Counted from the stretch's first letter, positions 13,753 to 17,846 are shown. The stretch is 61,102 bases of DNA from an uncultured Candidatus Saccharibacteria bacterium (GCA_964582295.1 CAZOQP010000002.1:148268-209369), one strand, 5' to 3'. Translations and numbers: made by a program. The notes: generated by a model not told the origin, from the letters alone.

Positions 13753-14706
13753 TCAGCCCTTTATGAATGTTTCAACGAGGTTTTCCACTTCCTGTGCATT
13801 AGAGGTTTCCATAAGTTTTAGCCGCAATTCGTGCGCACCCTCAAATCCGTTTACGTACGCCTTGTAATGCTTCTTCATTATTGAAAAGTTTTTTATACCA
13901 CCAAGCAATTCTTCAAAAAGTTTCGTGTGCTCCACCATCACCTTAAGCTTCTCCTCAACGGTCGGGATGTGTTCCGAAAAAAGCCAAGGGTTTCCGAAAA
14001 TAGCGCGGCCGAGCATCACGCCATCGCCGCCTGTTTCTTCGTGTTTCCTCCTCGCGTCGTCAACATCTACGACATCTCCATTTCCGATTATGAGCGTTTC
14101 AGGAGCAAGCTCATCTCGTATTTTTACGGCGCGAGCAACCGTGTCCCAACGCGCTGGAACTTTGGACATTTCTTTCCTGGTACGCGCATGAATAGTGACA
14201 GCTGCCACATCTTCCTTCAAAATTTCAGGGAGCCACGTCTCAAGCTCATCCTGGTTGTATCCTATGCGGGTTTTCACGGAAACGGGCTTCCCTTGCATCC
14301 CTTCTTTTGCGGCTCGTATCACTTCACGGGCAAGAGCAGGATTTTTAATAAGAGCCGCACCCGCTCCCTGCTTTTCCACACCCCTGTCCGGGCAGCCCAT
14401 GTTTATATCAAGCCCGTCAAAACCTAATTCGTGCACGAGCTTGGCGGCTTCAAGCATGTATTCAGGGCGCGAAGAAAAAAGCTGGGCCACGATAGGCCGC
14501 TCGGCTTCTGTGTATTCCAAATCTTTCAGAAGTTTTCTTTTACCATCCTCCCCAGCACGCACCAGGCCATCAGCAGAAACAAATTCCGTCCACATCACAT
14601 CGGGCTTTCCATATTTAGCAATGACACGGCGAAAGGCCGTGTCGGTAACATCCGCCATCGGAGCAAGTACGAAAAAGGGTTTCTTTAATTCCTGCCAAAA
14701 AGACAT
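13753..14706 (-). CDS. dus: tRNA-dihydrouridine synthase (DusB-like)
   Basis: LAPMADVTD, DINMGCP, VSVKTRIG, IHART, GNGDV, GVMLGRAIFGNPWLF; start ATG 14706. Confidence 0.93.
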   Translation of the reverse strand: MSFWQELKKPFFVLAPMADVTDTAFRRVIAKYGKPDVMWTEFVSADGLVRAGEDGKRKLLKDLEYTEAERPIVAQLFSSRPEYMLEAAKLVHELGFDGLDINMGCPDRGVEKQGAGAALIKNPALAREVIRAAKEGMQGKPVSVKTRIGYNQDELETWLPEILKEDVAAVTIHARTRKEMSKVPARWDTVARAVKIRDELAPETLIIGNGDVVDVDDARRKHEETGGDGVMLGRAIFGNPWLFSEHIPTVEEKLKVMVEHTKLFEELLGGIKNFSIMKKHYKAYVNGFEGAHELRLKLMETSNAQEVENLVETFIKG

Positions 14707-14726
14707 AAGTGACCAATATAACAAAA

Positions 14727-14751
14727 CTCCGCACCAATTTCTGGTGCGGAG
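14727..14751 (-). terminator. Hairpin upstream of the dus promoter
   Basis: CTCCGCACCA-ATTTC-TGGTGCGGAG, T-run on the minus side. Confidence 0.7.
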
Positions 14752-14805
14752 GGAAGATCGCCGGATCGTAGCATGCGAGTACGACCCGAAATAAATTTGA
14801 ATGAT

Positions 14806-14938
14806 TAGGGGTCATTCAAATCTATAGTTTGTTCAGCCATTGGAGAGCTAAATTAGCTCACGGAACCTGGATGTTCCACCCTTGCGGACGTACACCCAAG
14901 AGTAGACCGCTCGCATACCTGAAGCAAACTCAATCTGA
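14806..14938 (-). ncRNA. Candidate 6S-like RNA (short)
   Basis: TATAAT at 14943-14948; rod with closing stem AGTTTG-C-TTCAG/CTGAA-CAAACT, central bubble with GAGCTA/TAGCTC hairpin, terminal GCAA loop. Confidence 0.35.
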
Positions 14939-14977
14939 CAGTATTATAACTAGCGTAAATTAAAAAAACTAGCAAAG

Positions 14978-15017
14978 AAAAACGGCACCGTACCTTGGGA
15001 GGTAGTGTGCCGTTTTT
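14978..15017. terminator. Bidirectional terminator
   Basis: AAAAACGGCAC...GTGCCGTTTTT. Confidence 0.75.
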
Positions 15018-15603
15018 GTGGTCGTTCTGGTTTCTTCTGGTCTTCGCTCGTGATGAGGAAGGTCCATTGGATTCCAGAGGACCTGAAAATCAAGTTGCGT
15101 GTTTCCTTCCGAATGGAAACACATTGACGATTCCACAGCTTTCGGTGGAATGGGCCTTCTGTAGTGGTGCGAGGGCGAACTTTTTAGGGTCCTCCATCAC
15201 AAACCGCAGCTGGCTTTTATCTGAAAAGAGTTGCCCCTTTTCACGTCTCTAAGTATCCCTGATGCCGGATTCCTATATCGCGGAAGCGATTTTTGAGCTC
15301 GTCCGAAGACTTACTCTCAATCTGTCGTAGCGATTAGCATTTCCTTTCGGTCATGCTATTCACTAAGTCTGCCGCACTAGGAAAAATTTACCTTATCGGC
15401 TTCATTAGCATGCTTGCGCATTCTAATGAAAAAAGCATCGCCTTTAAGGTACGCTGGAGCCGAAGCCCCTGCGACGGTATCTTAGAAAAGACTTGCGTCT
15501 CTTCTTCGCTCTTTTCGTGAGGGTTGCCTCCATTGCTGGAGACCGCCTTCGCTACTAGGTGCGATCGGTGAGATACTTACAACTTTGAACGTACTGGGTC
15601 TGG
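14980..15603 (-). ncRNA. Large highly structured RNA of unknown family (core 15250-15579)
   Basis: Own promoter and terminator; closing stem TAAGTATCTC/GGGATACTTA; 4 GNRA and 2 cUUCGg loops on the minus strand only; no convincing ORF. Confidence 0.6.
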
Positions 15604-15609
15604 TGTGAG

Positions 15610-15638
15610 AGCTTACACATGTCGTTATCCACAGTCAA
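15610..15638 (-). promoter_or_regulatory. Sigma70 promoter with a DnaA box in the spacer
   Basis: TTGACT-N17-TAAGCT; TTATCCACA at 15625-15633. Confidence 0.7.
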
Positions 15639-15694
15639 GCGTTTAAAACTTTATAAAACAAATTGGACAATTCTGTCAAAACTATTGCAAAATC

Positions 15695-15752
15695 TACGTA
15701 GGACAGTCCTACGTACAAAGGTTTATCCTTTGGCAAAGGATAAACCTTTGTA
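15695..15752. repeat. Two abutting palindromes downstream of ftsQ
   Basis: TACGTAGGAC-A-GTCCTACGTA (15695-15715) and TACAAAGGTTTATCCTTTG-G-CAAAGGATAAACCTTTGTA (15714-15752). Confidence 0.8.
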
Positions 15753-15755
15753 ATG

Positions 15756-16565
15756 TTATTTATAGAAAATTTTGTTGCCGAATCGTAGATCTATATAAGA
15801 AACAGAAACTCCCCCCTTGCCATCCGCTAGGCGGTTTTTAGGGCTTGTTAAAAGCGAGGTCAGATTATTCACCGTCAAGCTGTCCTCTTGCCGCAAAGAG
15901 ACAAAGATATCGCCGTGAGAAAGAGTGAAAGTTACAAAACCGTTCTCACCAAAAGAAATTTCCCTCACTGTAAGGCCGAGAGTGGAAAAGCTTTGTACAA
16001 GGCGGCCCACGCGTGAGAATACTTCTTCGTCTGCCACTCGGCTTCCGATAGGTTCTCCATCAAGCACTGTACGGAAAGATACATATATAGGAGAGGAGAA
16101 AACGGGGGCCTTGTCGTAAATGAAACCGCTTTTATCGGTGAAATAACACACCTCCTTTGGAGCGCCGTCGCACCAAATAGAAAACGGTTCTCTTTCCGTT
16201 ACATTAACTTTAAGAGTATTCGGCCACGAAAAAGCTAGGTCCACATTTCCGGCGACCGGAAATGCACTCATGAGTGTTCGGGAAAGATTTCTTTTACCGT
16301 AAGTGAGAAGCGTCGCACGGGGAAATACCATAAATATTTTTCCACTGACGATCTCCACTATTTTTTCAGACACCACGGTACTTCCTATGGTTTGAGCACC
16401 TGTTACTTCCACTGTCCGGATAGCGAGCCATGGCAGGCGCACTACGGCAATAGGAAGAATTATCAAAATGATAAGCGTAAGCGCTGTGAGCGAGAATGCT
16501 CTTGTCCTTTTTTTCCTTTTTCGGTCAAGGATTTTCTGGGAACGAAGGATTGACTCTCCTTTCAT
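15756..16565 (-). CDS. ftsQ: Cell division protein FtsQ/DivIB-like
   Basis: Basic N-terminus, single TM, POTRA-like IRTVEVTG, V-x-EREP, C-terminal YIDLRFGNKIFYK. Confidence 0.75.
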   Translation of the reverse strand: MKGESILRSQKILDRKRKKRTRAFSLTALTLIILIILPIAVVRLPWLAIRTVEVTGAQTIGSTVVSEKIVEIVSGKIFMVFPRATLLTYGKRNLSRTLMSAFPVAGNVDLAFSWPNTLKVNVTEREPFSIWCDGAPKEVCYFTDKSGFIYDKAPVFSSPIYVSFRTVLDGEPIGSRVADEEVFSRVGRLVQSFSTLGLTVREISFGENGFVTFTLSHGDIFVSLRQEDSLTVNNLTSLLTSPKNRLADGKGGVSVSYIDLRFGNKIFYK

Positions 16566-16580
16566 GTAAATAAGAGCTGG

Positions 16581-17846
16581 TTAAGCGGACATTTTATCCC
16601 TGCCGCCCATGAAGCTTCGCAAAACTTCCGGGATGACTACACTGCCGTCCGCCTGCTGATAATTTTCAACGAGGGATACAAGAATGCGCGGCGTGGGAAT
16701 GGCTGTTGAATTGAGCGAATGAGCATATCTCATGGTGCCATCTACATCTTTATAACGGATGTTCAAGCGACGGGTCTGGAAATCATGGAAATATGAGGCC
16801 GAGCTTATTTCGCGGTATTTTTCTTCCAAAGGAACCCACAGCTCTATGTCATATTTTTTTACCTGCCCTAATCCCAAATCGCCTCCACAATTTGCAACAG
16901 TGTGATACGGGATGCCTAGAGATTCAATGAACTCCTCTGTGTTGCGATTCAGGTCCTCGTGGTGCTTCACCGATTCTTCATGGCTCGCTTCGCAAAGAAT
17001 GACCTGCTCCAGCTTGAAGAATTCATGAACACGGATAAGACCCTTCACATCTTTGCTGTAGCTTCCCGCTTCGCGACGGAAACATGGCGAGAAGGAAAGA
17101 TATTTTTTAGGGAGTTCTTCTTTGGATAGCACTTCGTCTGCATGAAAACCCATAGTGGCAACTTCGGCCGTGCCGGCGAGATAATCCCCATCCTGAGTTT
17201 TATAAAGATCCTCTTCGCCTTGCGGAACAAAGCCGGTACCAAGAAGAGATTCCCGGCGTACAAGAGATGGCACTATCATGGGAGTAAATCCCTTGCCGAG
17301 GAAAAAATTGAGCCCGTATTGCCAGATAGCATAGGAAAGCAGGGCTCCGTCATTCTTCAAAAAATATCCGCGAAAGCCAGCCACTTTGGTGCCGCGCTCA
17401 AGATCTACCATGTCCAATGCTTTCATTATTTCAATGTGGCTTTTTGGTGTGAAATCGAATTTAGGAAGTTCCCCCCATTTTTTTATTTCCTGGTTATCCG
17501 CATCGGATTCCCCGTCCGGCACCGAAATATCAGGAACATTGGGGACCTGAAGCATTAGCTTCTGCCATTCAGCCATTACGGTTTTCAACTTCTCTTCCTC
17601 CTGCGACAGTTCCTCTTTGAGAACACGCATTTCCGAAAGCAGGGCTTCTTTTTCCGTCCCCGACATTTTTACTATCTCTCCACCAACTTCATTCTGGCGG
17701 GCGCGCTTTTTTTCAACCGCATCAAGAAGTGCCCGGCGTTCGTCGTCTATATTTAAAAGCTCCTGAATATCAAAATTTATGCGCTTCTTTTTGGCTGCCC
17801 CGGCGATCAGATCTTTATTTTCACGTATAAAACGAATATCCAGCAT
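16581..17846 (-). CDS. serS: Serine--tRNA ligase
   Basis: MLDIRFIREN, GTAEV, CFRREAGS, GLIRVHEF, EISSAS. Confidence 0.97.
   Translation of the reverse strand: MLDIRFIRENKDLIAGAAKKKRINFDIQELLNIDDERRALLDAVEKKRARQNEVGGEIVKMSGTEKEALLSEMRVLKEELSQEEEKLKTVMAEWQKLMLQVPNVPDISVPDGESDADNQEIKKWGELPKFDFTPKSHIEIMKALDMVDLERGTKVAGFRGYFLKNDGALLSYAIWQYGLNFFLGKGFTPMIVPSLVRRESLLGTGFVPQGEEDLYKTQDGDYLAGTAEVATMGFHADEVLSKEELPKKYLSFSPCFRREAGSYSKDVKGLIRVHEFFKLEQVILCEASHEESVKHHEDLNRNTEEFIESLGIPYHTVANCGGDLGLGQVKKYDIELWVPLEEKYREISSASYFHDFQTRRLNIRYKDVDGTMRYAHSLNSTAIPTPRILVSLVENYQQADGSVVIPEVLRSFMGGRDKMSA

Follow-up and report, generated by a model that had tools for sequence, protein, structure and literature searches.

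Large structured non-coding RNAs of more than 400 nt are scarce in bacteria, with only about a dozen classes known, and almost every one that has been studied turned out to be a ribozyme, a ribonucleoprotein core or, recently, a self-assembling RNA cage. ROOL and GOLLD are large ornate RNAs of bacteria and phages that form RNA-only cages by cryo-EM, had no known biochemical function when first described and are reported to have a patchy, often phage-borne distribution (bioRxiv 10.1101/2024.12.08.627333). OLE RNA, of about 610 nt in extremophilic Firmicutes, works with the OapA/B/C proteins, is strongly conserved in sequence and has dedicated neighbouring protein genes. Bacterial type A RNase P RNA combines a conserved helical framework and long-range closing helices with variable peripheral hairpins. 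A rather different kind of precedent is offered by capsule and O-antigen loci and by restriction-modification specificity genes, in which conserved flanks enclose a central unit that exists as several unalignable types exchanged by flank recombination, although these loci encode proteins.

The locus examined here lies within a 61,102-nucleotide stretch of DNA (hereafter the window) from an uncultured Candidatus Saccharibacteria bacterium (GCA_964582295.1 CAZOQP010000002.1:148268-209369), belonging to a 567,816-bp, 7-contig, about 99% complete genome. On the minus strand, between an ftsQ-like POTRA gene (itself preceded by serS) and dus, all in the same orientation, lies a predicted transcript of about 625 nt at 14978-15603 that is probably a new class of functional RNA whose job is unknown. 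It shares with ROOL and GOLLD the approximate size class of 0.6 kb, a stand-alone gene, a multi-domain fold rich in tetraloops and signs of horizontal mobility. It differs from them in being chromosomal, in a fixed ftsQ-dus slot rather than in a prophage or next to tRNAs, in being apparently confined to one genus of the Candidate Phyla Radiation (CPR), in its far less conserved primary sequence and in the lack of any covariance-model match; oligomerisation was not assayed. With OLE it has in common the length of about 600 nt, a highly structured nature and a probable abundance, and the RNP-scaffold mode of action proposed below is modelled on OLE, but its sequence is at random-level identity between species, no dedicated protein gene is linked to it and no Rfam match was found. 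With RNase P RNA it shares the helical framework with variable hairpins, the long-range closing helices and its own promoter and terminator, yet it has none of the conserved regions of RNase P RNA and evolves much faster. As in the idiomorph-like protein loci, the types are distributed incongruently with the genome background and the break-points are sharp, but the exchanged unit is a single structured RNA gene, for which no described precedent is known.

The observation made in an earlier note on this sequence, of a promoter- and terminator-bounded stretch without a credible ORF that carries an elaborate fold, was borne out. The -35 element TTGACT lies at 15633-15638, followed by a 17-nt spacer and the -10 element TAAGCT at 15610-15615 (promoter P1, 15610-15638), whereas the intrinsic terminator occupies 14978-15017. 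The proposed closing helix of TAAGTATCTC (15570-15579) and GGGATACTTA (15250-15259) is present and pairs with a mean probability of 0.98 in the ensemble, and all six tetraloop hairpins listed in the note are present with pair probabilities of 0.91-1.00. The longest ORFs overlapping the region are 85 aa on the plus strand and 55 aa on the minus strand, none of which has a Pfam hit. Two long-range pairings claimed in the note are not supported: CGCAC-CTAG/CTAG-TGCG is found neither in the MFE structure nor in the ensemble and costs +7 kcal/mol when forced, and AGACTTA/TAAGTCT has a pair probability of 0 and overlaps the GTC-TTCG-GAC hairpin, also listed in the note, so that the two cannot coexist. 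The -10 box matches the E. coli consensus at only 3 of 6 positions and the promoter is not called by a simple consensus scanner, so its reality rests on conservation in the homologues. The sense strand folds to an MFE of -229.9 kcal/mol against -171.2 +/- 6.8 for dinucleotide shuffles (z = -8.6), while the antisense strand gives z = -6.1. Seven hairpins with a GNRA or UUCG loop on a stem of at least 3 bp were counted, against 1.18 +/- 1.06 in 500 shuffles, none of which reached 7; across 13 homologues the count is 53 on the sense strand and 19 on the antisense strand.

All parts of the element lie on the minus strand. A conserved upstream block at 15634-15694 is AT-rich and UP-like and contains the inverted repeat TTGACA-N4-TGTCCAA, which also reads as a second TTGACA-N17-TATAAA promoter-like site. 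The start of the predicted transcript is inferred about 7 nt after the -10 box, at the conserved CCAGACC (15597-15603), and its 3' end at the terminator U-run; neither end was mapped. The 5' strand of helix P0 (UCAA.GUUGU, 15579-15588) pairs with its 3' strand (GCAAC.UUGA, 15090-15098) with probabilities of 0.56-0.85. The 5' strand of helix P1 (AAGUAUCUC, 15570-15578) pairs with its 3' strand (GGGAUACUU, 15251-15259) with a probability of 0.98, thereby closing domain I, and corresponds to the closing helix of the note. Domain I (15260-15569) is a multi-branched core of about 310 nt with four GCAA, two UUCG and one GAAA hairpin and the conserved ACCUAG motif. Domain II (15099-15247), of about 150 nt, comprises four hairpins or branches between P1 and P0, including GGGG-GCAA-CUC, a CCUAAAAAG loop, and the AUUCCAC/GUGGAAU and GUGUUUCC/GGAAACAC hairpins, with pair probabilities of 0.80-1.00. 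The 3' module Hb (15020-15083) is a long irregular hairpin whose 3' strand is CA-rich (ACCAGAAGAAACCAGAACGACC), with pair probabilities of 0.90-1.00, and sits at the position of the Hb module that carries GAUGAC...GCCAUCA in other members. The terminator itself is formed by AAAAACGGCAC..GUGCCGUUUUU with an inner UACCU-CCCA-AGGUA hairpin, followed by UUUUUCUUU, at a pair probability of 0.96. Most helices have a pair probability above 0.9.

The element could not be assigned to a catalogued RNA. A scan against the 4227 covariance models of Rfam 15 at gathering thresholds returned only 11 tRNAs in the window, and at E<=10 over 14600-15800 nothing overlapped 14978-15610; four homologous loci likewise gave no hit. 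These searches include ROOL, GOLLD, OLE and raiA, as well as the intron models, and the free-standing position between ftsQ and dus with its own promoter and terminator is not that of a group I or group II intron. The RNase P RNA of the genome (RF00010) was found elsewhere, at 17647-18029 of contig C5 with 109.8 bits, as was its tmRNA (RF00023), at 40931-41312 of contig C1 with 103.8 bits. ARAGORN found nothing at the locus, although it also missed the tmRNA that Infernal finds, and the RNA ends in a terminator and not in a T-arm/CCA. No SRP-clan hit appeared at E<=10, RF00169 found nothing genome-wide in 8 genomes of the family (the large-SRP model was not run genome-wide), and the GA/AA 2x2 loop under the GAAA hairpin differs from the 4x4 SRP loop. 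Literature searches for large RNAs of CPR/Patescibacteria, confined to open-access text, found nothing relevant.

BLASTn of the RNA against 40 relatives recovered only itself, and the locus is single-copy in its genome, but counterparts were uncovered by synteny. The same-genus genomes G003 and G004 each have a promoter- and terminator-bounded non-coding stretch of about 600 nt between ftsQ and dus, with z = -6.9 and -6.7. In genomes of other genera no such RNA gap was seen: G017 has 30 nt between the ORFs, and in G012 the slot is filled by ORFs, an 839-aa ORF occupying most of it. Among the loci where the flanking genes could be placed, comprising 20 relatives' loci and 80 metagenome loci retrieved through Dus, the gap is usually 10-50 nt; some are larger, from about 200 nt up to 3.7 kb, with several of 2.8-3.2 kb. 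None of the nine longer gaps tested folds like the three genus members, but the shuffles were not exactly dinucleotide-preserving and these z-scores are only indicative. Searching with the fast-evolving FtsQ-like protein, alone and as a profile, gave nine further genus-level proteins, and every contig long enough shows a 690-1360 nt non-coding gap. A pattern of promoter and leader then recovered the copies of the same-genus genomes G001 and G002 on other contigs; only the 69%-complete G005 lacks one. In all, 13 sequences of about 11 distinct kinds, 395-635 nt long, were obtained (loci on retrieved contigs are given as L numbers below). The sources of the related contigs are ERZ28563803, JGI 3300014208, JGI 3300047629, SRR22870119, SRR22746125, SRR13723392 and SRR22388013.

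Global MAFFT alignments of the first three homologues, and later of all 12, were near-random and gave no consensus fold, and a pairwise alignment of the window copy with L142 gave only scattered blocks in the 5' domain. The members nevertheless share an AT-rich upstream block and a GCTTGAC-N17/18-TAnnAT promoter, the block being 86-88% identical over about 60 nt between the window and L143 and L144/L145 while the RNA body is about 42% identical. They also share a 5' leader CCAGACC-N-GUUCUU, helix P0 joining the leader-proximal segment to the segment just before the 3' module, helix P1 stacked on P0 and closing a core of about 250-310 nt, an ACCUAG motif early in the core, a second domain of hairpins, a CUCCCAAGAG hairpin in most members, the irregular hairpin Hb, carrying GAUGAC...GCCAUCA in most members, a CA-rich stretch and a terminator formed by a GC-rich hairpin plus U-run. 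P0 and P1 differ in sequence in every type but stay complementary. The stacked P0+P1 architecture is predicted independently in the MFE of 10 of 11 representatives and in 10 of 264 dinucleotide shuffles (3.8%), replacing a broad-window test of own-versus-foreign complementarity that had no power (self 8.7 against cross 8.0 bp).

Compensatory change was demonstrated in two subgroups that can be aligned by sequence. In the first (G003, L147, L151 and G002, about 72% identical), RNAalifold predicts 164 pairs, of which 26 have both sides changed, and 98.9% of cells are paired; with the partner slid by 1-3 columns pairing falls to 36-44% and only 1-4 double changes remain, and none of 500 shuffles reaches the covariation score. 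The second (L143, L152 and L149) has 138 pairs, 32 with both sides changed, and more breaks because the alignment is poorer. These alignments hold only 3-4 sequences each and show selection on pairing in sister types; the window copy has no alignable relative, and the evidence for it is therefore thermodynamic and architectural. The interpretation given in the earlier note, of an independently transcribed, large, ornate non-coding RNA possibly of a new family, was supported on each point that was tested. Of the outcomes that the note had declared beforehand to count against novelty or function, a confident Rfam hit, a lack of homologues and a lack of covariation were each looked for and did not materialise, whereas minus-strand transcription, also named there, was not examined, so that expression, strand and ends are inferred only. 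With about 625 nt, no credible ORF, covariation in sister types and conserved transcription signals, the element satisfies an operational definition of a large structured bacterial ncRNA. The apparent confinement to one genus and the exchangeable RNA body go beyond what the note had claimed.

A covariance model of the 3' module (R1) was built from 8 sequences, an earlier five-sequence seed having been misaligned by MAFFT and dropped. R1 recovers its seeds at 89-117 bits and the non-seed G004 at 33 bits, L144 and L152 only at terminator-noise level, and neither L142 nor the window copy, the latter being too divergent. Over 301 genomes from 190 genera of the order, it gives outside the genus only terminator-level hits, which are terminators next to coding sequence. 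The family therefore looks genus-restricted, albeit R1 is not sensitive enough to exclude very divergent relatives. The promoter and leader pattern, over all 86 genomes of the family, finds the RNA only in this genus; hits of the promoter with CAGAC in 13 genomes of other genera are nearly all mRNA promoters followed by SD+ATG, and one (L161, in genome G044) is a different structured RNA of about 265 nt.

The global identity of the window RNA to the six homologues first compared is 41-44%, which is random-alignment level, and 41-46% over all eleven, whereas RNase P RNA of the same genomes is 68-75% identical. The similarity pattern of the RNA also contradicts that of its flanks, most clearly in L151 against G004. 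The last 71 residues of SerRS are 100% identical, FtsQ is 78% and Dus 87% identical, and the DNA is 70-93% identical across ftsQ, 89-91% in the windows covering the ftsQ 3' end and most of the upstream intergenic block, and 81% in the window that holds the promoter. Identity falls to 36-39% exactly over the RNA body and returns to about 80-85% in dus. The RNA of L151 is instead 72% identical to that of G003 and L147, whose FtsQ is only 51% identical and whose flanking DNA is less similar than the RNA itself. L152 is a second case, a three-way mosaic combining a SerRS like that of L144, an FtsQ like that of G004 and an RNA like that of L143. Vertical descent with uneven rates cannot give this pattern, which points to replacement of the RNA body by recombination at its conserved flanks, with several deeply diverged types persisting within one genus.

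The favoured explanation, held with moderate confidence overall, is that 14978-15603 is a real, independently transcribed gene for a highly structured non-coding RNA that founds a previously uncatalogued family in one genus of Paceibacteria-type CPR bacteria. The analysis itself demonstrates a single-copy, promoter- and terminator-bounded, non-coding, highly structured element with a conserved architecture, pairing kept by compensatory change in an otherwise drifting primary sequence, restriction to one genus within the sensitivity noted above, and cassette-like exchange; that it is transcribed and stable and acts in trans is deduced rather than demonstrated. A real new structured RNA gene family is considered highly likely. 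Its specific mechanism is proposed only tentatively as a folded particle serving as a scaffold for one or more proteins, in which the few conserved elements, namely the 5' CCAGACC-GUUCUU leader, ACCUAG, the CUCCCAAGAG hairpin, the GAUGAC/GCCAUCA stem and the CA-rich tail, would be the contact points, and a partner, target or antagonist that is itself variable would explain why several deeply diverged types are kept and swapped. The scaffold mechanism has no direct support, as no partner protein, conserved neighbour or ligand was identified, and since the same genome is rich in other unexplained structured elements, some of the structure could reflect a genome-wide habit rather than a specific function.

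Among the alternatives, an RNA-only particle analogous to ROOL, GOLLD or OLE, forming a cage or dimer through loop-loop and A-minor contacts without a protein partner, is unlikely but in line with the size class, the ornate fold, the many GNRA loops, A-rich loops such as CCUAAAAAG and CUCAAAAC, and the horizontal mobility. However, no canonical 11-nt tetraloop receptor is present, no conserved self-complementary loop was identified and the CUAG of the ACCUAG motif is lost in L147 and L151. A protein-sequestering regulator akin to 6S or CsrB is thought equally unlikely. A-rich hairpin loops (CAUCAAAAG, CUCAAAAC and CCCAAAAG) recur in several members, L149 alone having about five, hairpins are gained and lost between members, and the conserved promoter would suggest high abundance; on the other hand, the loop motif is absent or rare in L147, L151, L142, L144 and L153, and a sponge would not need conserved long-range closing helices or GNRA/UUCG capping. 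A large ribozyme with a conserved core and a freely evolving periphery is regarded as slightly less likely still. Multi-domain bacterial RNAs enclosed by long-range helices are often ribozymes and a few short motifs here are invariant, but these lie mostly at the ends, no ribozyme family of Rfam was matched, a whole domain is missing in L144 (395 nt), and cassette swapping of deeply diverged types is unusual for a housekeeping catalyst.

An extremely diverged SRP or 6S RNA is very doubtful. The failure to detect SRP RNA in the family does show that at least one universal RNA here is too divergent for Rfam, yet genomes of sister genera that lack this RNA in the slot (G017, G012) also lack a detectable SRP RNA, so the two facts are unlinked; moreover, about 600 nt is far outside the SRP and 6S size range, no 6S hit appeared even at E<=10, and a universal housekeeping RNA would not be genus-restricted or swapped. 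It is likewise improbable that the gap is merely a recombination hot spot filled with structured junk or a mobile-element remnant, its structure reflecting DNA-level or selfish properties. The ftsQ-dus junction is indeed variable across the lineage and the genome carries many structured repeat families, but the locus is single-copy, the promoter is more conserved than the body, the tetraloop enrichment is strand-specific, the compensatory substitutions of the first subgroup indicate purifying selection on RNA pairing, and the break-points coincide with the transcript boundaries. The reading as a cis-acting leader, riboswitch or attenuator of dus was rejected. Although the element lies upstream of dus on the same strand, a strong intrinsic terminator ends it in every member, and in the window, G001/L153 and L143 a further RNA gene follows it, at about 14727-14936 in the window with its own TATAAT box and terminator and with its own terminator in L153; the contig of L143 ends before dus, but where dus is on the contig that gene lies between this RNA and dus. 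Furthermore, most relatives express dus with a 10-50 nt gap and no such element. Apart from the dus leader, the known families and a small-protein gene, which the evidence rejects, none of these alternatives is excluded by computation alone.

A more speculative possibility, considered unlikely though not excluded, is that the locus is an RNA idiomorph, a hypervariable, horizontally exchanged cassette taking part in a conflict or recognition process such as phage defence or decoy, interaction with the host cell of these episymbionts, or pairing with a diversified protein partner. Several ancient types would then be maintained in the genus by frequency-dependent selection and shuffled by recombination at the conserved promoter and dus flanks, which would be the first case of balancing or diversifying selection acting on a large structured RNA gene rather than on a protein locus.

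The element would represent a new class from the CPR, a huge and uncultured part of bacterial diversity whose non-coding RNAs are nearly unexplored. Its evolutionary behaviour is unusual, in that the architecture is conserved while sequence identity is at random level and whole-gene replacement occurs between species with break-points at the transcript ends, for which no description in a structured RNA is known. It offers a natural set of about eight isostructural sequences for structure determination, be it by cryo-EM or as structure-prediction benchmarks, and for asking what is under selection. Should it prove to be merely a scaffold for a lineage-specific protein, it still adds a well-defined family to RNA catalogues and improves the annotation of CPR genomes.

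Between the large RNA and dus, on the minus strand at window 14727-14948, lies a second stand-alone RNA candidate of about 200 nt, furnished with its own TATAAT box (14943-14948) and its own terminator (14727-14751). Homologues of this candidate sit at the same relative place in two same-genus loci, L143 and L153, the latter belonging to genome G001. A conserved apical hairpin, ACGUCC-GNAA-GGGYG, is carried on a covarying lower stem (GGGUGU/ACAUCC, GGCU/AGCU, AGCU/AGCU), and no Rfam hit was obtained. Given that small SRP RNA is undetectable in this family, the possibility that this candidate is a divergent SRP RNA or 6S RNA deserves consideration. The Rfam small-SRP model RF00169 found no SRP RNA in any of eight genomes of this family, namely the genome carrying the window and seven relatives, even at E<=1. 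In addition, ARAGORN missed the tmRNA that was found by Infernal at C1:40931-41312 of the former genome. A third terminator-ended structured stretch of about 300 nt, likewise without a Rfam hit, was observed upstream of the large RNA in some members of the genus (L144 3920-4260, L153 3320-3660, and L143 1912-2200, where L144 is a further same-genus locus). The ftsQ-dus slot can therefore hold up to three independent non-coding RNA genes.

On the ftsQ side of the slot, two perfect hairpins follow the ftsQ stop at window 15695-15752, one being an 18-bp AU-rich stem (15714-15752) and the other CGTAGGAC-TGT-CCTACG. These hairpins probably act as the ftsQ terminator or as an insulator, and the weak miRNA-model hits returned there are artefacts of the long hairpin. 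Outside the genus, a promoter-driven, terminator-ended, and strongly folding RNA of about 265 nt (z about -10) was encountered at 1501-1805 of locus L161, which belongs to genome G044 of another genus. It begins just past the end of a long ORF (288-1505), whose identity was not determined, with its promoter overlapping the last bases of that ORF. Although it starts with CACCAGAC like the large RNA, it is otherwise unrelated.

serS (window 16581-17846 and loci L142-L153) exists within the genus in two forms that are only about 33-43% identical in protein, the first being present in the window, the genomes G003 and G004, and the loci L146, L147, and L151, and the second in the loci L142, L143, L144, L149, L152, and L153 and the genomes G001 and G005. 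This indicates xenologous replacement and a mosaic serS-ftsQ-RNA-dus region. In addition, the dus gene of L151 carries, at about 2660-2850, an insertion of about 180 nt that is lacking in G004 and G003, with identity falling to 8-20% there, and its called product is 399 aa. It may be an in-frame hairpin-repeat insertion. The ftsQ-dus junction was also examined in relatives (loci L045, L049-L051, L056, L069, L094, L107, L116, and L138). In several other genera, the same junction is 2.8-3.2 kb long, with an 839-aa ORF filling most of the slot in genome G012 (L045), while others have 330-1400 nt of other sequence. The junction is a general insertion hot spot in this lineage.
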